Shown here one piece after another: positions 2,252 to 44,108 of a DNA stretch of 44,450 bases. Within the stretch, counting starts at the first letter, position 1. The number at the start of each line of letters is the position of its first letter. The notes below the pieces were generated by a model that saw only the letters and a program-made list of their open reading frames with translations, did not search any database and was not told where the DNA came from. The position numbers were made by a program, and so were the translations under genes. The stretch lies in the UHGV virus genome UHGV-0157893; one strand, given 5' to 3'. This DNA comes from a virus.

Positions 2252-2448
2252 CGCAATAACTCCGTTTTGTTAATTAACTAAACAATTCTACCATTTTGTA
2301 ATCTGTGTTACACTTTGGGCTTATACATAATGTATTTTTTGATCTATATCAACATACGAAATGATAGCTTCTGCGGTGATTTGCTCATCGGATGGGTGGA
2401 TCATCACGAACAACAAATGACAGTAAAACAAACAGTAAGGTGAATACA

Positions 2449-2694
2449 ATGAAAAAACTAATTGTTGCTTGCATCTTATCAGCTCTGTCTTTTGGTGCTT
2501 TTGCTTCTGTAAATTCGACAGATAAGAGTGATGCTGGCACTGCTCAATATGGTGATACTGGCCTTGATAACCAACGTTCGAGTTATTTCAATACTGACTC
2601 ATGGAAAGAAAAACAACTACAAGGTAAAATTATTGACAGTGAATGTAATTTACCTATCCATTTTTCTGGTGTAAATGATGGGTGTAAAAAATAA
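2449..2694 (+). CDS. Small secreted protein (moron), signal peptide predicted
   Basis: ATG at 2449 with AAGGTGA RBS; N-terminus MKKLIVACILSALSFGAFA is a classic Sec signal; opposite strand to flanking tail genes; followed by a terminator. Confidence 0.55.
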   Translation: MKKLIVACILSALSFGAFASVNSTDKSDAGTAQYGDTGLDNQRSSYFNTDSWKEKQLQGKIIDSECNLPIHFSGVNDGCKK

Positions 2695-5700: not shown

Positions 5701-7704
5701 ATTCGTGGTTTCGTAGCTTTTAACTACAGCGCCTTCGGCGTTATACACGCGAATCTCAAAGGTCAGGCGACGCGTTGTCGTCTGTGTTTCCCATGTTGCG
5801 CGACATTGAACCGTTTCAGATCCAACGTTTAACACCTTCAGATTTTCAATGTTCGGCACGCGGAAGTGATTAAGCGTGTCGTTATTGATCTCGAAGATTG
5901 CGCCATTATCGACTACGGCCTGCTTATGTGGATCATGCTGTGCGGCCTCGATGGTGTATACGCTGTTATTTTCTGTTTCTGCTACACTGGTGATTCGACA
6001 TAAAACGGGTTTTGCTGCGTTGGTTGATACAGCAAAAACAGTGCCGTTACGAATCCACGCCGGGGCGGCTGCAAGGGTGATAATGTTCCCGTTAACTCCG
6101 ATGATCTGGTGTTTTTTAAATTTACCATCGCTATCAAGTAAGCTGATGGTGTCGCCAGCCGCGATATATTCAGAATCAACCTTGTCGACCGTGATCGCTC
6201 TGCCATTGTTCGCCACGATGCGACCGCCTAAACGAGCGCCTGCGCGATTATTATCGAGGATCTCGATTATATCCCCCGGCGTAAAGTGAATGGCGTCACG
6301 GGCCATTTTAAATGTGAATTTTGACGGCTCGCGTTTCGCTGTTTCGATCAGCCATTTACCAGCGCGGTGCGCTTGCCCGCGTGAAGTGCAACCGAACGCC
6401 TCCAACGTGGTTTCGTTATAACCATCACGGGCGATTAGTTTATCATCTGCGACATATTCTTTTGATTGCTCCCAGCCGTTTTCAGGGTCAGTCCAGGATA
6501 CGATCACGGCGTTGTAGCATTCTGCGCGTGCGATACTTGAACGAGTAAACGCGCCATCAACGACGTTTGCATTTGTGATGGTGGCGATTGGATCTTGTGG
6601 CGCATCAATCATCACGGTAAGACGTTGTCCGTCCCATAACGCGATACCACGGAACATACCTGCGATGTTATCCAGTAGGTCGCGGGCGCTCATTTGCTCC
6701 GTAATGTAAGCGTTAAGCGTCATGCGAGGTTCAAGGCCACCATAGCCATCATCAACCAACTGATCGCAGTATTGAGAAAGCACGTACAAAGCGCCATCAT
6801 CAACATCAATGTAACCAGCATGTCGAGCAAGTCCAAAGCGCTCGTTTTTAACCAGATACCGGAAAAGCCATGCAGGGTTATTGGTATACGCCTTTTTAAA
6901 TCCACCAAGCCATAAACCTGAATATGTGCGCGTTTCAGGGTTGTAGTTGTCAGGCACATCAACAATCAGGCCGCGAAGGTGATAGGTGCGGGTAGGCGTA
7001 TCAGTATACTGATCATGGTCAATTACGGCGCCAGCTACAGCGGTATGAGGATAAGACAGATTATCATCTATTATTTCGCTGTAACTACTCCACCGCGTAT
7101 CATTCCGCAATAGATCGCCGTTGCTGTCTGGTGTTATGCGACGAACGCGAATATCAAACGGTTTTTCATCCGGCGCTTTAATGATGTGAGCTTCCAGGTA
7201 TTCACCGCTTTGTTTACCAGGGCCAATGTGTATGTCTTTAATCAGCGACCACGTAGAAGATGATGACGGTTTAACATCAACCATCAACATGACGGATGTA
7301 TTATATTGATTGCCCTTTTCATCTGACTGAACGAGAGCATCAACACCAAGATTCAACCTGACGCGGGTAACGTTTGGATCTGAAACAGTCCTGATTATTG
7401 GTGTGTCGTGAGTTACCTTTGCGTTGACAATAACGGTTGACTCAATGGCGTTAAAACCATTAATCGGCGATTGGTCAGCCGTGCCGTTGCGCCAGGCTAT
7501 ACTAATCCCCGGAATTGATGTATTCCCGTTTGCGTCAGTAACAGGAGTGTCATTAAGCATCACGTCATTCAATGGCGCTTTCTGGTTTACCGGACCGTAT
7601 ATCGGCCCTTCGCTGAGAATATCTAAAACACGATAAAACTGTTTGTGATACAGGTTATCGTTCAATAATGTTGGTGTTTTGGCTTTGCCGCCGCCGCTAC
7701 TCAT
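2734..7704 (-). CDS. J: Host specificity / central tail fiber protein (lambda gpJ family) with long C-terminal extension
   Basis: 1656 aa; ATG 7704 with AGGAG RBS; N-terminal half aligns by eye with lambda J (ILSEGPI, YHLRGL, YCDQ.VDDGYGG.EPR); C-terminal part has coiled-coil repeats and a distal domain. Confidence 0.9.
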   Translation of the reverse strand: MSSGGGKAKTPTLLNDNLYHKQFYRVLDILSEGPIYGPVNQKAPLNDVMLNDTPVTDANGNTSIPGISIAWRNGTADQSPINGFNAIESTVIVNAKVTHDTPIIRTVSDPNVTRVRLNLGVDALVQSDEKGNQYNTSVMLMVDVKPSSSSTWSLIKDIHIGPGKQSGEYLEAHIIKAPDEKPFDIRVRRITPDSNGDLLRNDTRWSSYSEIIDDNLSYPHTAVAGAVIDHDQYTDTPTRTYHLRGLIVDVPDNYNPETRTYSGLWLGGFKKAYTNNPAWLFRYLVKNERFGLARHAGYIDVDDGALYVLSQYCDQLVDDGYGGLEPRMTLNAYITEQMSARDLLDNIAGMFRGIALWDGQRLTVMIDAPQDPIATITNANVVDGAFTRSSIARAECYNAVIVSWTDPENGWEQSKEYVADDKLIARDGYNETTLEAFGCTSRGQAHRAGKWLIETAKREPSKFTFKMARDAIHFTPGDIIEILDNNRAGARLGGRIVANNGRAITVDKVDSEYIAAGDTISLLDSDGKFKKHQIIGVNGNIITLAAAPAWIRNGTVFAVSTNAAKPVLCRITSVAETENNSVYTIEAAQHDPHKQAVVDNGAIFEINNDTLNHFRVPNIENLKVLNVGSETVQCRATWETQTTTRRLTFEIRVYNAEGAVVKSYETTNYSYDFYGIDAGNYSLGIRGRNDTGMKGAESIVDLVIGAPAAPVGVNWVPGVFQATVYPISRTTLTTDTSYEFYYSGETQITDPASITTKAQYTGRGHQWTFGGMNTGHTYYVYVRARNAFGVSDFVEASGKPTENFDEITDYVTKDVMNSKQFKEMVGDIKDLGDRTDLIESATNDLKTATDNLKAATDNLTNITDDLRTETDNLTIETGSIKADTDTLKKETEDLYKKVKENADDIGQHESRIDSLEVSSEKVGSELAQAKASLQNASLALINNSLAQTNTRVTLTAQYKKGRTETKAEIDRIDNVIAEEKKATAESLETITAEMNVMDTNLKGQISNVQRAVADEASARAEAINGVNASISNLDKKTDASVNRLDQAIADETSARTQAISDVNASISTLDKKTDASVKRLDNAISDETQARSDAITVVKADLTTLENNTNASVSRLDQAIADESSARAQAISGISATLGGVKSEVDKNSDEIDQAKASLQNASLALINNSMAQSKMSTVIEAKYRKGQTKTKAEIARVDTAIADEASARAEAISNVNASVSSLESKTDASVSRLDKAIADEASARAEAISGVNASISTLDSKVTSNVTRMDKAIADEKNARTDAISSLNSSLTSTINSKVSEVSTALSTHETSSAEKFGQISASFDDVNSSITEWSQAMATADEALSTRIDQLKVTINGNTTAIETTSKALTDFKGNVDASYSIKIATDKNGMKYATGMSLGLTGSGTNVQSQCIFLVDRFVLMTAAGGSYQTPFYVTNGACYIRDAWIRDASITTAKIAQQIQSTNYKAGSAGWMLNKNGNAEFNNVTVRGTVYATSGKFTGEIQATSGKFKGTVEAKSFVGDVANMGVGPDRVLGHNGSYSATITYKDSTDNALTKSVMLMATISLMSGEYRSTYNVTFSCGDKNKTISYYVPYGGCTLTVQCAFSGLKASDIIGKIYCPQTSSSEGYAYCTALYSPTMIVARGTGSFRTSTTA
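3840..4700 (-). repeat. In-frame tandem repeats (~108 bp, 36 aa units) inside J
   Basis: Near-identical DNA blocks (agcttctgcgcgtgcgctcgcctcatctgcgattgc at ~3961 and ~4071, variants near 4311, 4531, 4641) encoding TDASVxRLDxAIADExSARxxAISxVNASISTLDxK units. Confidence 0.6.
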
Positions 7705-9629: not shown

Positions 9630-9758
9630 TTTCTCACCTTGTCATTCTGTGATCTGCGTCACGCTAAATCATACCAAAATGGATTGATCGCGGTTTTTAC
9701 AATATGTATATTTTACTCAAACGGAAGCATAGTTAACAAAATGGCGCGGAGGTGCGTT

Positions 9759-9947
9759 ATGACTGAAAAGCTATGGAAGTTGACGGTATTCATGACAGAC
9801 GGTAGGGAAAAGGTTATCGCCCTGTATGACGACGAGGGTGAAGCATTGGTTGACGCGCTTTTACTTGCTGAGGATGACCGCCTTTTGGGATACCAGATCG
9901 AACCTGTCAAATATGAGGCTAACAAAAATGAAAAAATACAGTCTTGA
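9759..9947 (+). CDS. Hypothetical small acidic protein (moron cassette gene 1)
   Basis: ATG 9759 with GGAGG RBS 5 nt upstream; 62 aa; opposite strand to tail genes; 3' end overlaps the next gene. Confidence 0.5.
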   Translation: MTEKLWKLTVFMTDGREKVIALYDDEGEALVDALLLAEDDRLLGYQIEPVKYEANKNEKIQS

Positions 9948-10275
9948 TGTGTGGTTAAGTGGTAGCAAGGAGTGTTTCGGATTATTTGATAGCGAAGAAG
10001 TAGCCCTGGAAGAAGGCAGGATTCTTGAATGTAGTTTAGGCCATCCAGTGAAATATGCTGCTAATCCGGTACATATAGTTGATGAGGTGGAAGATATGAA
10101 CCCGAAAGATATTAATGGTAGCTTCACTGCTTATTATGCAGATTCTATGGACCAGTCTTGCCCTGGTGAAATACACGCAAAAGGTTTCCCGGCTGACGAT
10201 CCAGAAGCAAAACGCGAATACGAAAAAGCGGCGAAAGATTTCTGTATCGATAACCTTTCAGCATTCGATAAATAA
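9928..10275 (+). CDS. Hypothetical protein (moron cassette gene 2)
   Basis: ATG 9928 (MKKYSLDVW...), 115 aa, overlaps gene 1 out of frame (translational coupling). Confidence 0.55.
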   Translation: MKKYSLDVWLSGSKECFGLFDSEEVALEEGRILECSLGHPVKYAANPVHIVDEVEDMNPKDINGSFTAYYADSMDQSCPGEIHAKGFPADDPEAKREYEKAAKDFCIDNLSAFDK

Positions 10276-10284
10276 GGCGGCAAC

Positions 10285-10533
10285 ATGGGGCGGCGCAATC
10301 ACGGTGATTATGTGTACACGTTGAAACAGGCCGCCCGCCTCATCGGTTATCATGAACACGAATTTATTGATTTGCTGATTGAGCGCGGGATACTGTACCA
10401 GGTCTGTTTAACGCTGTACCCGAAAGCGAAATACCTACATGAAAAGTTATTCATCATCATGACGGATGAAAACCAGGTTAACCATTCATTCGTCACTGAT
10501 AAGGGCGTTAATTATCTGCGTGATAACTTATAG
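10285..10533 (+). CDS. Hypothetical protein with putative helix-turn-helix (moron cassette gene 3)
   Basis: ATG 10285 with AAGG RBS; YTLKQAARLIGYHEHEFIDLLIERGIL resembles excisionase/MerR-type HTH. Confidence 0.45.
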   Translation: MGRRNHGDYVYTLKQAARLIGYHEHEFIDLLIERGILYQVCLTLYPKAKYLHEKLFIIMTDENQVNHSFVTDKGVNYLRDNL

Positions 10534-10659
10534 GTGACTGATTATAAAAATAGAAGTTTTGGCGCTAATAATAATGTGGTTGATAGTATTTGGCGTTCAT
10601 GCTGTAGATCTGGACTGGAAAACGATAGCAGAAAATATAGCATTAATGGAAATAGAATA

Positions 10660-10695
10660 AAAATAACCCCGCTTCGCGCGGGGTCGTGTTTATAC
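10660..10695. terminator. Bidirectional terminator ending the plus-strand cassette and the M operon segment
   Basis: CCCCGC-ttcgc-GCGGGG hairpin at 10667-10683 flanked by A/T runs on both sides. Confidence 0.5.
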
Positions 10696-10887
10696 GCCAT
10701 CAACCAAAAATAAAACCTCCTTCCCTTCCCGGGATCTACACCCAACGTACCCATCACCAACGTCGTGAAGATACCATATATCGCCGTTGTCAGCTTTTAC
10801 AGTAAGGTCGTTGATCTCATAGTCGTCAAACAATGTAAAAGCGTAAGTTTTGTCAACTACACAAGTCCCGTACATAACAACCCCCAT
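10690..10887 (-). CDS. Hypothetical small protein translationally coupled to M
   Basis: ATG at 10887 shares a base with the M stop (TAATG); 65 aa. Confidence 0.4.
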   Translation of the reverse strand: MGVVMYGTCVVDKTYAFTLFDDYEINDLTVKADNGDIWYLHDVGDGYVGCRSREGKEVLFLVDGV

Positions 10888-11240: not shown

Positions 11241-11301
11241 AAAACCCCCCCACAAGTTACATTTTGTATATATCTTTACGCGCTTCTACGCGAAAAATAA
11301 G

Positions 11302-11318
11302 ATCATTGTCACAATGAT
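11302..11318. promoter_or_regulatory. Perfect 17-bp palindrome (operator-like) in divergent intergenic region
   Basis: ATCATTGT-c-ACAATGAT, next to a conserved 25-mer (11275-11299) and a TTTACAAAATGG motif (11328-11339). Confidence 0.4.
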
Positions 11319-11409
11319 TATAGCTAGTTTACAAAATGGCTTCACATAGCACGCAACAAGATGTATATAGAAAGCAAGAAGAAAGTAGTACCAACGAAGG
11401 AGGCCCAAA

Positions 11410-11565
11410 ATGAAACGCTATGTAGTAGTAATGCTAAATAACGCATTCGAACAAGTGGAAATAGCAATCGTTAAGGGTTTCGACGACGCATTCAAATACG
11501 GTCAATTCATGATGAATGCGAAAGAAGATGAATACCGGGACTTCTTCCTGAAGGCACTTAACTAA
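11410..11565 (+). CDS. Hypothetical small protein (51 aa; below ORF-track cutoff)
   Basis: ATG 11410 preceded by AAGGAGG; MKRYVVVMLNNAFEQVEIAIVKGFDDAFKYGQFMMNAKEDEYRDFFLKALN; stop 11563-11565. Confidence 0.5.
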   Translation: MKRYVVVMLNNAFEQVEIAIVKGFDDAFKYGQFMMNAKEDEYRDFFLKALN

Positions 11566-11582
11566 GGATGATGGGGTGAGTT

Positions 11583-11837
11583 ATGAAACTGGTAGCGATT
11601 GACAGAAATCTGAAAGCACAGAAAAACGCACAGGATCGGATCATCAAGAAAGGTAAGGAATTACTTAAAGCCTTTCTGAGAAAAGAAGTTTACCCCAAAA
11701 AGTTACGCGACGGTTACGGATACAAAATGGATATCAATCTTGATTGGAGGCTGTTTAGCGAAGATTTGAAGGTTTGGTTAATTGTTGAGCACCATGCCTA
11801 TAACAAGTTATGTGGCGTGAAAGGCACTCATAAGTGA
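11583..11837 (+). CDS. Hypothetical basic protein
   Basis: ATG 11583 with GGGGTGAG RBS; 84 aa, Lys-rich N-terminus; co-oriented with the preceding small gene. Confidence 0.5.
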   Translation: MKLVAIDRNLKAQKNAQDRIIKKGKELLKAFLRKEVYPKKLRDGYGYKMDINLDWRLFSEDLKVWLIVEHHAYNKLCGVKGTHK

Positions 11838-11894
11838 GTCGAGATATTCGAAAGGGGATATATCGCGCGGAATGGTCGTTTATAAATACGAAAA

Positions 11895-11928
11895 ATAACC
11901 CCGGCATTGCACCGGGGTTTAGTTTATT
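11895..11928. terminator. Bidirectional terminator
   Basis: CCCCGG-cattgca-CCGGGG hairpin (11899-11917) with a T-run after it on plus and an A-run before it; ends the plus-strand cassette and the tape-measure gene. Confidence 0.6.
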
Positions 11929-14266: not shown

Positions 14267-14393
14267 GATTTAACCTCATGCAAAAATGTGATCTGTGTAT
14301 CTATTTTATACAAAATGGCTTTACTTCAATGACTCCATTTTGTATAAGGAAGCTAAAGGGAATGGTCAGTAAATCAAGTTAGCGTGGTGGGTT

Positions 14394-15053
14394 ATGAAAC
14401 GGTTAGCAAAAGTGGCAATGATTGCGGCGGTATTGGGTCTGGTTGGTTGCAATGAGGATAATGAAAAAGCGCCTATAGTGACCAATCAAGAGCAACAAGC
14501 ATTAGCAGAGAAAAATGCTAAATGGCTTGCAGAACAACAAGCAAAACAAGCCGCATACGATGCACAGTTAGAAAAAGAAAATGCTGGTAAACAGTGGCTT
14601 GTAGTTGAAAGAAAAGATGATATGCAGGACGCAAAAAACGTATTCCTTTTTGTGAAAGCAGAACAATTCAGCGGAAGTCTTGATGCTTTCCCGACACTGA
14701 AGGCACAGGATAAGAATAAACCGGTATTAACAATCGCTTGCCAGGGTAATAAAACAAAAATGTTCGTAGCATGGTCACACCATGTAACTGACGCCGGGGA
14801 CACTACTTATATTAACTACCGGATCGGCGTTCACAAAGCTGTAGCTACTGAGTGGTGGCGGTCAACTAATTATAAAGCTCTTGGATTATGGGACGGCAAA
14901 AAAGCCATCCCAATGATTAAAAAACTGGTTAACGAAAAACAATTCATCATTGAAGTAGTGCCGGAAGCTGGCGACATTGAGAAAGCAGTGTTTAACATTG
15001 ATGGTCTTTATAACCACATCGACAAAGTGAAAAACGCTTGCAACTGGAATTAA
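14394..15053 (+). CDS. Lipoprotein (moron; candidate superinfection-exclusion or envelope factor)
   Basis: ATG 14394 with GGTGG RBS; signal peptide with lipobox LVGC; 219 aa; plus-strand island in the tail module. Confidence 0.6.
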   Translation: MKRLAKVAMIAAVLGLVGCNEDNEKAPIVTNQEQQALAEKNAKWLAEQQAKQAAYDAQLEKENAGKQWLVVERKDDMQDAKNVFLFVKAEQFSGSLDAFPTLKAQDKNKPVLTIACQGNKTKMFVAWSHHVTDAGDTTYINYRIGVHKAVATEWWRSTNYKALGLWDGKKAIPMIKKLVNEKQFIIEVVPEAGDIEKAVFNIDGLYNHIDKVKNACNWN

Positions 15054-15063
15054 GGGGTAAATC

Positions 15064-15438
15064 ATGAAAAAAATAATCAAAGCGGTTCTCATTGGTGTTA
15101 TGGCTTTAGCTCTTACAGGGTGCGCAAGATCAACTGATTTCGTTAAGTTAGCTGATAAAAATTTGCAAGTTGGAATGACTTGTGAGCAAGTGAATAAAAT
15201 AATGGGGGAACCACAAAGAATCGAGCATGACGGTAATTATAGTTATCACGTATGGTATTCAGTAACCAGCACGATAGGATTTACTTACATGGATGTTGAA
15301 GAATTATCCCCTTCAAGGGTTATCGCAAAGTTTGATAACTGCATCCTAAAAGAATGGAAAGATCGCAGTAAGGCAAAGTCTGTATACAATACAATCACAC
15401 ACAGTTCACCAGGTACAGCAATTAAAGATTTCAATTAG
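15064..15438 (+). CDS. Lipoprotein with BamE/SmpA-OmlA-like motif
   Basis: ATG 15064; lipobox LTGC; LQVGMTCEQVNKIMGEP resembles the BamE fold signature; 124 aa. Confidence 0.55.
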   Translation: MKKIIKAVLIGVMALALTGCARSTDFVKLADKNLQVGMTCEQVNKIMGEPQRIEHDGNYSYHVWYSVTSTIGFTYMDVEELSPSRVIAKFDNCILKEWKDRSKAKSVYNTITHSSPGTAIKDFN

Positions 15439-21354: not shown

Positions 21355-22279
21355 ATTTAGCGTGCGCAACCTTATAGTTTTCTTGCGCCCGATCTAATAT
21401 TCGTTTGTTTAATATGTTACCGTCTTCGTCAACCAATACGGTAATCGTGCTACATTTGCAGTTAATTGAATTTGGGGATCTGCTCCACCATTCGCGCTGC
21501 TCATCTATGGTGTATGTTTTCCCGTGCCGCTGCGCGTGCGATAGCCTGGTAGTCGGTGACAATGCCGAAATGTGCATTTGCATGGTGCGCAGATTAAGCT
21601 CTTCTGTCGCCGCTTCTGCCTCATCCATACGCGCTGTGCGTAACGCTGTGCATATTTCAGTTCGGGCAATACGTTTGCACCTGTATAGCGGCAATTGCGT
21701 TTCCTGCTGCAATGTGCGCGCTATTTCCAGTGGATTTAAACCACGGGCCATCCCTTCGGTTAATCGCCGGGCCATATCCTTCTTGATCTGTGCTGTTAGC
21801 CCGCGCATTTCCTCAAATACACGGGTACGAACAAGGGCAAGGCGCGTGCGGTAAGTCGTACTTGATAGCACGGCGGATACATCAGGATAAGCGCTTGAGT
21901 AAGTAACAGACTGGTTGGCAAGGTTGGCGTATTCCTGTGCCGTGCCGCGCTGATATGCCACCTTCACGTATTCCTGCCAAAACCAAAAACTTTCCGGGTC
22001 GGTTAGCTCGAATATCTCATCAATCATGTCGCTGGCGTCCTCCAGCATGTCGTGCAATTCATCCATGTAAATCTGGAAGGTGTATTTCTTATTAACAGCC
22101 AGGCTATATTGTATTCTGTCCAGTATGGCGATATATGGATCGGCTATTTTCTTCAGGCAGGATTTGAAACGCTTAATAGCTCCCGACCGTAACTTACCTG
22201 TCATGGTCGGGTCTTCGGTGTTAGATGGCATTATCGCGGCGGGAGGTATTCGCCTGATTATTTTCTTCACCTTCATCAT
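21335..22279 (-). CDS. Head morphogenesis protein (SPP1 gp7 / Mu F-like minor head protein)
   Basis: ATG 22279 with GAGGA RBS; 314 aa; position right after portal. Confidence 0.6.
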   Translation of the reverse strand: MMKVKKIIRRIPPAAIMPSNTEDPTMTGKLRSGAIKRFKSCLKKIADPYIAILDRIQYSLAVNKKYTFQIYMDELHDMLEDASDMIDEIFELTDPESFWFWQEYVKVAYQRGTAQEYANLANQSVTYSSAYPDVSAVLSSTTYRTRLALVRTRVFEEMRGLTAQIKKDMARRLTEGMARGLNPLEIARTLQQETQLPLYRCKRIARTEICTALRTARMDEAEAATEELNLRTMQMHISALSPTTRLSHAQRHGKTYTIDEQREWWSRSPNSINCKCSTITVLVDEDGNILNKRILDRAQENYKVAHAKYGEDWE

Positions 22280-23591
22280 CGTTTTCCTCTTCCATTTCCA
22301 CTACACTGGCTGGGCCATCGTATCCGGCAGCCTCGCGGATCTCGTCACCGCTAAATATTTCTTCACCAGTAGCCAGGCAAGCCTGATTGATTTGCGCCAT
22401 TTTGTGTGCCGCTTCCAGTAGTTCGGCTTTGGTCATGGCGTTAAGGTCGTCCCACAGTACAGATACGTCTACTGGCATACCGATAAGGCGGAGATTTGCC
22501 ATCTTGCGGAATAGTTCTTCAAGCTCGCCTCCTATTTCCTCGCGGCGGGTCATACAGCGATTATTGAAGTAGCGGAGGTCTTCAGTTGATGCGCGTTCAC
22601 CCTGCTGATTCCCAACCAGGATACGCGTCGGGATGTCGATACCAGCGGCGGCAGTTTGCAGGTTGACGTCATAGGTTGCAGATGGATCGGCTACGGCAGT
22701 CACCAGCGGGCTAACACTTGCCCCTTGTAATGCCATCATCACATCATTACCCCTGTTCATTTCTGCTGCTGCCTCGTTGAATTTCTCGCGTAGCTCTGTA
22801 ACGTCGCAATCGTATGTTGCAGCCAGGGAACGGAAATCAATCTCTTTATCGAACGAGATAGCCAGTTGACGCGCGGCATTTTTCAGGAATGACTCACCGC
22901 TGCCGCCTTCCACTTTCTCCAGTGACACAAAGGCGTTATAGGAAGGCTCAAGGAAAGCGATGGCATCATCAGAATAGTCGCCAAATATGAATATGCGATC
23001 AGGGTGGATCTTTCTCGCAATGGTCTTACTGTTAATGCGTTCTTTGTATTCCCACCATGTTGGCAGGCCATAGTTTTCTTTATCCGGGTTTTCTTCGAAG
23101 TCCTTCGGCGTAAGAGCACCAGCCCACACAGGGGTGAATTTGGCAATGCCTACGCCTTTTGTTACTGGCTGATCCCACGGCTTATTATCTCTGACATGAA
23201 TTAACAGGCCCGCATAACGACCGATGAGGCGGCGGCGATCGCATTCAGCTATGACGCGCCAGAAACGATTATCAAATTGCTTTTTAATTTCTCTTTCCCA
23301 CGGCGTTTCCGTTTCTGCTTTCTCGTCTTCCGTACCTTCAATCAGCGTTGGCCTGGTGCGCCAGCACGTAGTAATGATCTTCTCAATGGCACCGTGAGCG
23401 ATACCACCGCGACGATACAGCTTGTAAAGATCTTCATAGGTGATTTCTTCTTTGAATCCGTATTCACTCCACGCAGCGTCACGTTTTGCATCAATACCCA
23501 TTGAGAATGGGTTAGCGGCTGCATAGCGGGCAAAGGCCGCCTGGCGTTGTGACAAGGCAGCATTAACCGCCAATTCTAAATTGGATGGCAT
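22221..23591 (-). CDS. Portal protein
   Basis: ATG at 23591 with AGGAG RBS (the earlier ATG at 23612 lacks an RBS); 456 aa with acidic C-terminus; directly downstream of terL. Confidence 0.7.
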   Translation of the reverse strand: MPSNLELAVNAALSQRQAAFARYAAANPFSMGIDAKRDAAWSEYGFKEEITYEDLYKLYRRGGIAHGAIEKIITTCWRTRPTLIEGTEDEKAETETPWEREIKKQFDNRFWRVIAECDRRRLIGRYAGLLIHVRDNKPWDQPVTKGVGIAKFTPVWAGALTPKDFEENPDKENYGLPTWWEYKERINSKTIARKIHPDRIFIFGDYSDDAIAFLEPSYNAFVSLEKVEGGSGESFLKNAARQLAISFDKEIDFRSLAATYDCDVTELREKFNEAAAEMNRGNDVMMALQGASVSPLVTAVADPSATYDVNLQTAAAGIDIPTRILVGNQQGERASTEDLRYFNNRCMTRREEIGGELEELFRKMANLRLIGMPVDVSVLWDDLNAMTKAELLEAAHKMAQINQACLATGEEIFSGDEIREAAGYDGPASVVEMEEENDDEGEENNQANTSRRDNAI

Positions 23592-23669
23592 AATGTTTAC
23601 TCCTGAATACATGTTTACGCGTTGCTACGCGAAAAATAGAAAAATTAGTGAGTGATTGTGAGGCAGATT

Positions 23670-32404: not shown

Positions 32405-32705
32405 TTTCACCTCTCAACATCCAATTTCTGTCACATTTAATTGCGAATACCTTAACAGGATCAGGGCCGAATAATGGATGAGTGATAGTTTTTACTTCGT
32501 ACCCAAAATAAGGAAGGTTAATAATCCTGTGTTTTTCGTGGTTGGCAGGGTATCCCCATTTAATAATCAGGCGTTCATATTCCCGCCCTTCCAGACGTTT
32601 ACGCCAATAGTCATTATAAAGCCGGTATTCCTCCACCTTCTTTCCAGTCCATATGGCGTGGAAATATTCCCCTTTCAGATTCAAATGCAGGTCTTTACTT
32701 GCCAT
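32394..32705 (-). CDS. Putative ASCH-like domain protein
   Basis: ATG 32705; LHLNLKGEYFHAIWTGKKVEEYR resembles ASCH/DUF3850 N-terminal motif (from memory, not searched). Confidence 0.4.
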   Translation of the reverse strand: MASKDLHLNLKGEYFHAIWTGKKVEEYRLYNDYWRKRLEGREYERLIIKWGYPANHEKHRIINLPYFGYEVKTITHPLFGPDPVKVFAIKCDRNWMLRGENEK

Positions 32706-32964
32706 CGCTATGATCCTGTAAACAGTCGTTATAGCCTTCAATGTATCCGGTTAATCCGGTGTTACTCACTGACCATTCAGCCGAACGGCGCTTGATGGCT
32801 TCGTCCATCGTGATTTCGCCACCCGGCCCGCCAGGCTCAATATATTTTTTTAAATCCCTTGCTATCCACGCCCTCAATTGTTGTGTATCACGGCACAACC
32901 GCGCGGATAATGTCAGGTCATTAACCAGCTTTGCAAATAGATGTTCTTTTAGTTTAGGCTTCAT
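32695..32964 (-). CDS. Hypothetical protein
   Basis: ATG 32964/32967 with GGGGTGA RBS. Confidence 0.45.
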   Translation of the reverse strand: MKPKLKEHLFAKLVNDLTLSARLCRDTQQLRAWIARDLKKYIEPGGPGGEITMDEAIKRRSAEWSVSNTGLTGYIEGYNDCLQDHSDGK

Positions 32965-33154
32965 CATCGTCACCCCGCTTGTAAATTTTGACAGGCTTAA
33001 TAGGGATGGCTGGCAATTCGCCTTCATTTAACGCGCTTGCCATACCCAATATTAAACGCGCTTCCGCGCCAGTGACTTTCTTACACCATGCGCCGCCTGT
33101 TTTATCTTCAAATAAGATAACGGCAAACTGATCGTTTATTTCCAGCTTATCCAT
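32954..33154 (-). CDS. Hypothetical protein coupled to Q
   Basis: ATG 33154 with GGGGTGA RBS; TAATG overlap with Q stop. Confidence 0.5.
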   Translation of the reverse strand: MDKLEINDQFAVILFEDKTGGAWCKKVTGAEARLILGMASALNEGELPAIPIKPVKIYKRGDDDEA

Positions 33155-33876
33155 TATTCACCCCGTGTCACTCGTTTGATTTCACTTTCCGCGCGGCCCT
33201 CTTCTTTGAATAGCTCCGCTATGGCGTCTTCATAGAAAACCCGGTATTTTTTCCACCAGGTTGATCGGCTTACCGGAAAAACAAGCTGATTAACGGCCTG
33301 ACGCACAAGATCTACGGGGAAACGCGAGTACCCGCGCCCGCCGCAATGCTGGCACGTTTTGAACACTGGCATTTCCGCCGCTTCGCTGGCTGCTTTATCC
33401 GGTACTTCGCCACGGCCCTTGCATTGTTTACAATGATTGAGAACCTTCCCATGCCCCTTGCATTTTTTGCAAAGGTGTTTTTCTCCGTATTCGTCAAACG
33501 TAAATTTATATCCGCCGCACTCCATACAAGTTTTTTCCGTCGCGGCACTCTGGCAATAATCCCGAAACGCGAAAACGGCAACAAGAATAATGAGATCATT
33601 GCGTTTAGCCTCGTCCAGTTCCATAACGTATTCATAATCTTTTGCCATAGCCTTTAAACGCTCTATAAGCAAAACTACGGCCTTATGTTTTTCGGCTTGT
33701 GATAGTTCCATCTTTCCCAGAAAAGCGCTATAACCAAGCTCTACGCGCGATTGCGCCATACCAGCGGCAGTTAGCGCATCCGTAGTATTAAGCGCATCCG
33801 GGGACGTGCCCCGGCTTTCATCTGACAAACGCGGTGATTTTGGGAAGTGGAATTTAAGAATAGATTCCAAATTCAT
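33154..33876 (-). CDS. Q: Late gene antiterminator Q (phage 82 / phi80 type)
   Basis: ATG 33876 with GGGGGT RBS; N-terminus MNLESILKFHFPKSPRLSDESRG matches the remembered phage 82 Q start; multiple CxxC zinc-finger pairs. Confidence 0.8.
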   Translation of the reverse strand: MNLESILKFHFPKSPRLSDESRGTSPDALNTTDALTAAGMAQSRVELGYSAFLGKMELSQAEKHKAVVLLIERLKAMAKDYEYVMELDEAKRNDLIILVAVFAFRDYCQSAATEKTCMECGGYKFTFDEYGEKHLCKKCKGHGKVLNHCKQCKGRGEVPDKAASEAAEMPVFKTCQHCGGRGYSRFPVDLVRQAVNQLVFPVSRSTWWKKYRVFYEDAIAELFKEEGRAESEIKRVTRGE

Positions 33877-34058
33877 TATTTACCCCCGTAACGTGCAACC
33901 AGTCTTTTGCGATCAGATATTGATTGCACTAGCTTTCTTTCAAACTCTTTCAGTGCAAGTAATTCTCGCATGTGAAAAGCCTGAATTTGTCGGACTGTGG
34001 CTAAATCACGCTCGTCGCGCTGAATATCTATTTGCAGATCTTTAATTTCGTTTTTCAT
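33876..34058 (-). CDS. Hypothetical small coiled-coil protein
   Basis: ATG 34058 with GGTGG RBS (track start GTG 34070); between rusA and Q. Confidence 0.45.
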   Translation of the reverse strand: MKNEIKDLQIDIQRDERDLATVRQIQAFHMRELLALKEFERKLVQSISDRKRLVARYGGK

Positions 34059-35376: not shown

Positions 35377-35392
35377 TGTGACCTGTATCACA
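35377..35392. promoter_or_regulatory. Perfect TGTGA-N6-TCACA palindrome (CRP-consensus-like) in 160-bp intergenic region
   Basis: tgtgacctgtatcaca at 35377-35392, flanked by inverted copies of the GTATACAAAATGG / CCATTTTGTAAAC motif. Confidence 0.4.
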
Positions 35393-38867: not shown

Positions 38868-38966
38868 CTTGTTTTCCTCCGTGCCGTAAACCTTTTGATT
38901 TCGGTTTACAAAACGGATACGCGATCACAACACAAAATGTATATTTATGTGATCGCAATCACGCTG

Positions 38967-43032: not shown

Positions 43033-43124
43033 TCCATTTTGTATACTTTTTTAAAATATTTTATATGCCATTGATATTTAAATAATAAATAACGTTTTCT
43101 GTTTACGTTTTGGTGTTTTCCAGG

Positions 43125-43155: not shown

Positions 43156-43803
43156 TTATGGCAGGTTTACGATCTTCGCATCAACCACCACGCCTATAAT
43201 TTTTGATTCTGGATTCATAGGGATTGGCGGATACAGCGGATTGAGCGAACGTAAAAGCCTTTGACCTCCATCAATAATCAACTGTTTAAACGTCGGTATC
43301 TGCCCTTCCTCAAGCTGGGCTATAACCAGTTTGCCGTCAATAGCTGGCGCGTGCGGGTCCACAAGTATCATCGTCCCCGCCGGGATGCTCAACCCCTGCG
43401 GCGCGTTCATTGATTCACCTTTGGCAACCAGCCAGTAACTGTCATCTGAACAAATAACGCTAGTCGTAACGTGTCGTAATGCTGAACGCCTTGCGTCATC
43501 CATATTGTTTACTGTGTCCTTCCAGTCAATAACCGGGTAACTACCTAAATCACGCGGCGGCACGGCCTGAAGTGTATTAGAAACAGAATCATCAATGACC
43601 ATACCATCATGTGTAACAGTGAACTGCCGACGACCAAGCTCTCGCATAATCCGCGCAATATCTTCAAGATTTGGCTCGCGGCGACCGTTCAGCCAGTGTG
43701 ACAGGCCGCCTTTAGTTATCCCCATGCGATCCGCTAGTGAATCCTGGCTCATGCCCTGCGCCCGCATGAGCTGCTTTGCTAAGTCATACCATTTTGTTTT
43801 CAT
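43156..43803 (-). CDS. cI: CI-like repressor (HTH_XRE plus S24 LexA-type peptidase)
   Basis: ATG 43803; HTH (QDSLADRMGITKGGLSHWLNGRR); C-terminal S24 domain with GESM (Ser) and a downstream Lys (KQL). Confidence 0.85.
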   Translation of the reverse strand: MKTKWYDLAKQLMRAQGMSQDSLADRMGITKGGLSHWLNGRREPNLEDIARIMRELGRRQFTVTHDGMVIDDSVSNTLQAVPPRDLGSYPVIDWKDTVNNMDDARRSALRHVTTSVICSDDSYWLVAKGESMNAPQGLSIPAGTMILVDPHAPAIDGKLVIAQLEEGQIPTFKQLIIDGGQRLLRSLNPLYPPIPMNPESKIIGVVVDAKIVNLP

Positions 43804-44108
43804 GTCGCTACCCTATAACCTCAAAAAGTTTGATGCAAGTCACAAAACGTGTATTTTAAGCCTTGATCTTAAAATTCCATTTTGTAAACTTGCAGACAAG
43901 GTAAGGCCATACTTGCAAAGACGCAAGGAAAAAGATAACGGAAGGCACAAAAAGGCACTTACCTTAAGCTCTTTAAAAATCCGGTGTCGCTGCGAAGCGA
44001 AAAACAAATATCACGCAACGGCGGGATCTGTTGAGCGGTCAGTCACTGCTATCTAATGCTAATGGGATGCCCGCCCGCGCGTTCACTCTAACCATAGGAG
44101 AAAACACG

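Follow-up and report, generated by a model that had tools for sequence, protein, structure and literature searches.

The stretch of DNA analysed here, virus genome UHGV-0157893 (44,450 nucleotides (nt), called the window at its full length), is an Escherichia coli prophage of the mEpimmI (mEp021) family, a recently described group of Nus-dependent, non-lambdoid temperate siphophages (PMC11893012). Between its minus-strand tail genes L and M lies a cassette of small genes on the plus strand, which we call g1, g2 and g3 (Table 1). A sequence-only reading of the window had picked out these three genes, of 62, 115 and 82 codons, as a candidate moron, and a computational follow-up of that proposal is reported here. 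Open reading frames (ORFs), the PGAP annotation of a 100% identical E. coli chromosome, in which the same g1, g2 and g3 are called, and substitution patterns all agree on the three genes and on their orientation opposite to the tail genes. Pooled pairwise ratios of nonsynonymous to synonymous substitution (dN/dS) were 0.21 for g1, 0.22, 0.60 and 0.08 for the N-terminal domain, linker and C-terminus of g2, and 0.11 for g3, with 0.05-0.08 for L and M; these ratios show purifying selection, and g1, g2 and g3 are therefore protein-coding.

Table 1. Features of the cassette and its borders, in window coordinates
Feature	Position	Strand	Description
Palindrome TGTGA-N6-TCACG	9648-9663		CRP-site- or phage-operator-like; centre ~-62 to -64 from inferred transcription start
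Degenerate "-41 box" CCAAAATGG	9674-9682	+	One base upstream of the -35 hexamer
Promoter Pg1	9684-9712	+	Sigma-70 type; TTGATC (-35 at 9684), 17 bp, TATATT (-10 at 9707-9712)
Near-invariant box GTTAACAAAATGGC	9732-9745	+	5' leader, ~+14 to +27; contains the recurrent motif TTAACAAAATGG
g1	9759-9947	+	62 amino acids (aa); small acidic protein; phrog_29559; 51-aa core domain and variable tail
g2	9928-10275	+	115 aa; variable N-terminal domain (aa 1-50), variable linker, conserved C-terminal region (aa 71-115)
g3	10285-10533	+	82 aa; stand-alone KilAC/ANT domain; MerR/Xis-like winged helix-turn-helix (HTH) model
Small hydrophobic peptide gene remnant (IKIEVLALIIMWLIVFGVHAVDLDWKTIAENIALMEIE)	10544-10660	+	Start codon ATA; TTG at 10559 a possible alternative start
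Bidirectional intrinsic terminator	10665-10685	both	Strand-independent call; TERM_11 and TERM_12 in mEp021
65-aa gene after M	10690-10887	-	phrog_3249; right-hand boundary, outside the cassette

As the sequence-only reading had stated, each gene has a Shine-Dalgarno-like sequence of its own, read by eye as GGAGGTG 5 nt before the g1 ATG, GAGG 9 nt before g2 and AAGG 7 nt before g3. The translational overlap that it saw between g1 and g2 is present in the window (20 nt) but is a feature of one clade, not kept in relatives: elsewhere the two genes are 1-17 nt apart or overlap by 19-32 nt, and the junction can vary because the conserved domain of g1 is confined to its first 51 residues. A programmed frameshift from g1 into g2 is unlikely, since the relative frame and the junction vary among relatives and g2 retains its own ATG. 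Downstream, a GC-rich hairpin scored as terminator-like on either strand and is entered as a two-way terminator in the mEp021 GenBank record, in agreement with the bidirectional terminator proposed earlier; it lies on the route of late tail transcription. Two further details of the original description needed amendment. The island does occupy the M-L gap, but its strict neighbours are L and the 65-aa gene, and the three genes are followed, ahead of the terminator, by a fourth small ORF. A comparison with Rfam gave no RNA family anywhere in the window.

The cassette is a constant feature of its phage family. Its 2-kb region is 83-88% identical to that of seven coliphages (mEp013, mEp554, mEp515, mEp021, mEp010, mEp044 and MagusPhagus), the cassette in the E. 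coli GN04592 prophage is 100% identical, and 35 of 5,426 complete E. coli genomes carry it, at a chromosomal location in every case; a g3 scan of genome contigs gave no relatives in other species. For comparison we used 47 related loci (44 IMG/VR loci with g3, together with mEp021, MagusPhagus and the GN04592 chromosome locus) and located L, g1, g2, g3, the 65-aa gene, M and the next island in each. Both g2 and g3 were found in all 47 and g1 in 46 (it is missing from L044), in a constant order between L and M. In a published manual analysis, a "phage antirepressor protein KilAC-like" is among the 59 genes common to all 48 genomes (PMC11893012). Identity across relatives was 88-100% for the highly conserved g3, 44-100% for g1 and 56-100% for g2, against 85-100% for L and 80-100% for M, so that g1 and g2 are by far the more variable. 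Because the core genes are near-universal and optional genes come and go, the cassette consists of a fixed backbone and a variable fringe and is no occasional insertion, and the idea of a sporadically "inserted" moron fails within the lineage.

The fringe consists of genes at two places. Between g2 and g3, six loci (L001, L023, L034, L040, L041 and L046) carry extra genes, either a 75-81 aa protein of the mEp021 gp72 type or, in L046, an HNH-endonuclease remnant. After g3, a 67-aa protein (MLKYDGQKMVRF...), a 58-aa protein or a hydrophobic peptide of 38-45 aa may follow, with extra genes in L016-L022 and L027-L031. None of the optional proteins matched Pfam where tested. Homologues of the window's peptide gene were detected in 32 of the 47 loci; 24 have an ATG with an AGGTGA Shine-Dalgarno sequence, seven have ATA and one is disrupted (L026). 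The seven ATA loci belong to the window's own clade, and they and the window retain the Shine-Dalgarno sequence. With its ATG lost, the small hydrophobic or membrane peptide gene after g3 appears to have been inactivated in the window. On the other side of the terminator, the 65-aa gene overlaps M by ATGA, an arrangement of translational coupling, and is kept in relatives (dN/dS 0.11). It has no lambda counterpart, and ES18 gp24 (DUF1327) is a different small gene in the equivalent place.

Comparison with tail modules outside the family supports the architectural part of the moron proposal. The closest belongs to Salmonella phage ES18 and its relatives, whose L is 70-71% identical. There, gp25 lies on the opposite strand in the M-L gap, gp22 on the opposite strand in the H-M gap and the small gp24 on the same strand after M; each is annotated "possible moron" by the depositors, and none is homologous to the cassette genes. 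L and M are adjacent in sampled Erwinia phages (66-69%) and in lambdoid phages (~45%), so this comparison of L-M junctions agrees with the earlier statement that lambda-type phages keep the slot empty. The M-L slot is therefore best seen as a lineage-level site for accessory genes. The ES18 morons gp22 and gp25 resemble the cassette in using the same tail-module slots (H-M and M-L), on the opposite strand and with their own terminators, but each is a single gene of unrelated sequence, whereas the mEpimmI cassette has three to seven genes and is fixed family-wide. Several marks of a moron are seen: extra genes between otherwise adjacent genes, an own promoter and terminator (from computed scans, footprints and the mEp021 annotation) and a deviating base composition, the cassette having 41-44% GC where K, L, M and H have 50-53% (AT-richness is shared by the other opposite-strand islands). 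Opposite strand, own promoter, two-way terminator and a GC content below that of the flanks thus bear out the architecture as described. Sporadic presence among close relatives, a further mark, was seen for the optional extra genes only.

Presence in every relative at one position of the tail module would also suit accessory factors for the assembly of the L/M tip, and the sequence-only reading had named conserved tail assembly factors as the finding that would speak against it. The cassette is indeed universal at its position, but there is no indication of a tail-assembly role, and no match to a tail family was obtained. It is antisense to the late operon, with a separate promoter and terminator and a different GC content; ES18 has unrelated genes in its place, and it is absent where L and M adjoin. 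In the mEp021 record, gp71-74 carry no virion note, unlike the virion proteins identified there by mass spectrometry. We consider a part in tail assembly exceedingly improbable.

The most informative product is that of g3. It matches the Pfam ANT/KilAC profile PF03374 with an E-value of 1.1e-6 and 29.4 bits (cut-off 25.3) over profile positions 23-105 of 108, and precomputed PF03374 matches are on record for six of the seven clusters of the g3 family. By this sequence criterion g3 can be assigned to the KilAC/ANT family, and its structural model resembles a MerR/Xis-like winged HTH; match and model are both in keeping with the HTH that had been suspected in this gene. The earlier statement that none of the products resembles a recognised family was consequently wrong for g3, but it holds for g1 and g2, which have no match in Pfam, NCBIfam or PADLOC. 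None of the three genes matched PADLOC 2.0 or NCBIfam models, and no toxin or antitoxin family was found for any of them in Pfam, NCBIfam or PADLOC, so these three collections gave no support to the defence and toxin-antitoxin-like roles that had also been suggested.

Outside the phage family, the nearest relatives of g3 are the C-terminal domains of larger Rha/Ant antirepressors, at no more than 38% identity to g3, as to any KilAC domain outside the family. Characterised members act on the host. The KilAC domain of AriS, from a Listeria phage, damps the SOS response (PMC9043618); CreP of Acinetobacter baylyi, which consists of one KilAC domain, has a bacteriostatic effect, with filamentation or division arrest (bioRxiv 10.1101/2024.01.05.574328); and the KilA-C domain of Gp07 from phage Phi11 inhibits growth. 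With these and with KilA of P1, g3 shares the match to PF03374, and with CreP the arrangement of KilAC as the only domain. Of two signatures described for CreP and KilA, g3 has, read by eye, TxKG (as TDKG) and a partial form of AKxLxL (QAARLIG). It differs in length (82 aa against 103 aa in CreP) and in context: the CreP, AriS, Gp07 and KilA systems lack the two orphan genes that precede g3.

The two orphan genes ahead of g3 are related to each other. In hhalign comparisons the 51-residue core of g1 aligned end-to-end with the N-terminal domain of g2 (probability 64-80%, E ~1e-5; controls <1%). Core and domain are, by this profile evidence, paralogues, and the end-to-end alignment makes g1 and g2 look like a tandem duplication. 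Two further candidates for the same family, p51 and the 65-aa ORF, were rejected, with hhalign probabilities of <1%. In relatives g1 is 51-67 aa long. The structural model of g2 is confident for residues 1-50 only, a beta-beta-alpha-beta unit, and a small beta-beta-alpha-beta fold is attributed to both g1 and the g2 N-terminal domain. Alignment of g2 showed a variable N-terminal domain and linker followed by 45 C-terminal residues that are near-invariant, including C78, H83 and C106. The distribution of g2 is narrow: a collection of 5.8 billion proteins yielded 58 clusters, all from E. coli or phage-sized contigs, and a g2 profile run against 1.84 billion representative proteins gave 16 matches, namely fragments of the same family and short stretches of four long proteins. 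These searches point to a protein restricted to the mEpimmI phage family. Between g1 and the g2 N-terminal domain, allele identities were nearly uncorrelated (Spearman 0.24), and the clusters of the two combine freely. Both domains diverge fast and reassort among phages while the C-terminal tail of g2 stays constant.

Fast-diverging, reassorting domains on a constant region are also what might be expected of a protective system, expressed in lysogens, that excludes or aborts other phages, with the variable g1 and g2 domains recognising diverse proteins of the invaders. The moron architecture and low GC are compatible with this explanation, and phage exclusion has been demonstrated for lipoproteins among the family's other opposite-strand genes (PMC11893012). 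The lack of PADLOC, Pfam and NCBIfam matches for g1 and g2 argues against it, as do the absence of an evident enzymatic or membrane effector, a dN/dS of 0.2, a crude measure by which positive selection was not detected, and an orphan distribution that offers no guilt by association with defence islands. We regard protection as unlikely. An addiction module is very unlikely. In such a module g3 would be a bacteriostatic toxin and the acidic g1 and g2 proteins encoded upstream its antidotes, an arrangement suggested by the small co-transcribed genes, by CreP, a bacteriostatic toxin made of a single KilAC domain, and by a neighbouring island that resembles a ParE-type pair. Besides the missing toxin and antitoxin families, however, g3 is constant and its putative antidotes vary freely, whereas cognate partners would be expected to co-vary, and some relatives have extra genes between g2 and g3.

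Transcription of the cassette is predicted to begin at Pg1, the sole plus-strand promoter-like site that a consensus scan returned in the L-g1 gap. Footprinting of this gap across 34 distinct sequences from relatives identified as conserved the TGTGA/TCAC half-sites of a palindrome (its 6-nt spacer is variable), the -35 hexamer TTGAT(C/A), the -10 hexamer TATATT and the leader element GTTAACAAAATGGC, which is near-invariant between flanks that vary on both sides. A leader hairpin hiding the start codon was rejected (z-score -1.9, no obvious covariation). Facing Pg1 and overlapping it is a promoter-like site on the minus strand, at 9710-9739 (TTGTTA, 18 bp, TAAAAT). The near-invariant box, read as its reverse complement, forms the -35 of this site, the -10 is good in both clades (TAAAAT or TACAAT), and the site scored no better than chance in the scan. 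It could allow transcription towards L without Q, or be a competitor of Pg1.

Over ~72 nt, Pg1 is homologous to a promoter at ~43034(-): the local alignment score was 39, against 16.2 +/- 2.6 for shuffled sequences, and none of 1000 shuffles reached 39. The 43034(-) promoter lies between the terminator that follows a CI-like repressor gene (43156-43803, Pfam S24 and HTH_3) and an N-like gene, and a boxA follows it; this location and the downstream boxA mark it as the early rightward promoter. Pg1 is therefore best described, from this alignment, as a paralogue of the phage's early promoter.

The palindrome upstream of Pg1 has two possible readers. The CRP consensus is TGTGA-N6-TCACA, and by its fit to that consensus the palindrome may be a CRP site. 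TGTGA-N6-TCAC occurs at three loci in the window (9648-9663, 35377-35392 and 38948-38962; 0.28 expected), each within ~40 bp of copies resembling the 9-mer ACAAAATGG described below, and because the two other loci also stand beside such copies it may instead be a phage operator. The palindrome at 35377 lies inside a longer hairpin that matches the predicted mEp021 terminator TERM_4. A search for the repressor's operator, by shared words and palindromes in the two gaps of the immunity region, gave nothing decisive. A TTGC-N6-GCAA palindrome (CTTGCGTCTTTGCAAG) upstream of the repressor gene, in the 43920s of the window, has an equivalent in mEp021 (L048, ~6045-6060); its arms are kept and its centre differs between the two, and it is a candidate operator.

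The sequence-only reading had also noted, upstream of g1, a copy of a recurrent motif. This motif, TTAACAAAATGG at 9733-9744, is enriched in the window, with six occurrences at no more than one mismatch against 0.53 expected, and its 9-mer core ACAAAATGG is ~19-fold over-represented (14 occurrences, 0.74 expected), with sites at 2291-, 9736+, 11331+, 14310+/14335-, 30126+ (with 30151-), 35337+/35401-, 43034- and 43877-. Ten exact copies are intergenic, often as inverted pairs; every antisense island has them, as do the early promoter, the region upstream of the repressor gene and the surroundings of the presumed nutR2 region. Three explanations of the motif were discarded. It is not a nut site, as the boxA-like elements GCTCTTTAACAATC / GCACTTTAAAAATC stand apart from it, one ~55 nt beyond the early promoter and others near 43950 and 35310; judged by eye, its spacing does not fit the -35 or -10 hexamer of a promoter of its own; and its ATG is inconsistent across sites as a leaderless start.

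Position relative to promoters was more revealing. Four promoters, at 43034(-), 9674(+), 11331(+) and 14310(+), have one layout, in which a 9-mer box is followed by 1 nt, the -35 hexamer, 17 bp and the -10 hexamer; the probability of this box-to-promoter register arising by chance is ~1e-7 to 1e-10. In the promoter of the next island, at 11331(+), phylogenetic footprinting likewise showed conserved hexamers and a variable spacer. The centre of the box, near -41, falls at the position of a class II activator or of the proximal UP subsite. The four promoters resemble lambda PRM/OR2 and the proximal UP-element subsite in having a conserved element at ~-41 that abuts the -35; unlike in either, the box here also occurs in leaders and as inverted pairs. 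The repressor, the Cro-like gp14, g3 and the alpha subunit of RNA polymerase are candidate binders of ACAAAATGG.

That g3 binds these boxes, as a transcription factor that coordinates the immunity region with the antisense islands and is modulated by g1 and g2, is suggested by its winged-HTH model, by the unusual invariance of both g3 and the 9732-9745 box, and by the fixed, activator-like position of the box in the four promoters. The prophage repressor (~96% conserved) is an equally good candidate, and the likeness of the box to a proximal UP-element subsite means that a dedicated factor is perhaps unneeded; we find this role for g3 quite unlikely.

Two of the box-type promoters belong to further opposite-strand islands. 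The second island (11256-11919), between M and the tape-measure gene, has its promoter at ~11331-11374, ORFs at 11410-11565 and 11583-11837, and a two-way terminator at 11897-11919. The ORFs encode 51 aa and an 84-aa protein with a ParE-like toxin domain (Pfam PF24732, E 9e-12); the island is conserved in relatives (dN/dS 0.07-0.08) and looks like a type II toxin-antitoxin pair. The third island (14267-15438) comes after the tape-measure gene. One of its products, of 219 aa, is VasI/TagO-like (Pfam PF11319, E 1e-15), and the other, of 124 aa, matches lipoprotein families weakly; two inverted ACAAAATGG copies (14310+ and 14335-, 16 nt apart) stand on either side of the island's promoter. Elsewhere in the window, a small opposite-strand ORF at 2392-2694 (+), between J and the side-fibre gene, has a signal-peptide-like N-terminus and 35% GC; in mEpimmI phages the exclusion lipoproteins Lpp021 and Lpp010 are placed at the J/side-fibre position (PMC11893012). 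A portal-adjacent head gene of 463 aa (32519-33889 in locus L003, ~22221-23612 in the window) bears the PGAP name "anti-CBASS protein Acb1 family protein", given here as annotated.

The homology of Pg1 to the early promoter raises the possibility that the cassette is a module for early lytic takeover of the host: silent in the lysogen, it would fire with the early promoter directly after infection or induction and before the late tail operon, with g3 acting as a Kil-type protein and g1 and g2 as small inhibitors. The position of the paralogous promoter, between repressor and N-like genes and ahead of boxA, favours this, as does a gene set universal in the family, like a core function. Growth inhibition by expressed KilAC domains fits transient lytic expression, and as long as the late operon is off, lying antisense to it does no harm. 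On the other hand, the same promoter class drives the ParE-like and VasI-like/lipoprotein islands. Genes of those types are normally expressed from prophages, which argues for prophage expression here too. The search identified no repressor operator through which Pg1 would be repressed, and the CRP-like site suggests control by host physiology. An early lytic role is possible, but on this balance we think it rather doubtful.

Tentatively, we favour the interpretation of the cassette as a moron-type accessory operon, fixed in the mEpimmI family in the M-L slot of an ES18-like tail module, in which a KilAC/winged-HTH protein (g3) is joined by two diversifying paralogues (g1 and g2). Host sigma-70 RNA polymerase would start at Pg1, and transcription would end at the two-way terminator. 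By analogy with characterised KilAC domains, g3 may be an effector or regulator that acts on the host, through a division block or damping of SOS; g1 and g2 would be protein-binding partners that tune or neutralise g3, or that bind variable targets. Late Q-modified transcription from M through the terminator towards L would be antisense to the cassette and would be expected to silence it, in keeping with the logic of non-contiguous operons in phage phi80. In the Tai/Ati operons of that phage, too, opposite-strand genes lie inside a longer unit and read-through antisense RNA couples the two programmes (PMC11364771); the Tai and Ati proteins are unrelated to the cassette proteins, and the parallel is conceptual, the coupling in the cassette being read from its geometry.

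Several points weigh against this interpretation. Allele identities of g1, the g2 N-terminal domain and g3 are nearly uncorrelated (Spearman 0.06-0.24), which gives no support for tight co-evolving pairs. With its shorter length than CreP and incomplete AKxLxL signature, g3 may simply bind DNA. A toxic or division-blocking g3 is hard to square with constitutive expression in the lysogen. Finally, a dispensable moron is seldom fixed throughout a family, and the operon could have a core role in the life cycle.

As to what is new, the genes were already deposited as hypothetical proteins or as a "putative antirepressor", and the phage family has been published; the additions made here are the paralogy of g1 and g2, the pattern of variable head and constant tail, the decay of the peptide gene, and a promoter class together with its homology to the early promoter. 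mEpimmI phages are reported to be as prevalent as lambdoid phages in their source collection, and about half of their genes are without known role. The operon is among the few non-structural units kept by every member of the family and therefore probably matters for phage or host; should it prove dispensable, it would simply add to the morons whose function is unknown. The links of KilAC domains to damping of SOS and arrest of division are recent, and the combination of one such domain with orphan proteins of variable head and constant tail makes the operon a tractable system for finding out what KilAC proteins do when they stand alone. The common promoter design is a concrete starting point for asking how a temperate phage coordinates those genes that lie antisense within the late operon. 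A more far-reaching proposal, in our judgement improbable, is a three-part system in which the KilAC protein is controlled by the two diversifying paralogues and forms one arm of a phage-wide ACAAAATGG "-41 box" regulon. If it were true, the antisense islands of the tail region (the cassette, the ParE-like pair and the VasI-like/lipoprotein pair) would share the early promoter's regulator, accessory genes could, for example, be switched with the lysis-lysogeny decision, and host SOS or division could be modulated; such modulation might be relevant to the report that UV fails to induce mEpimmI lysogens.

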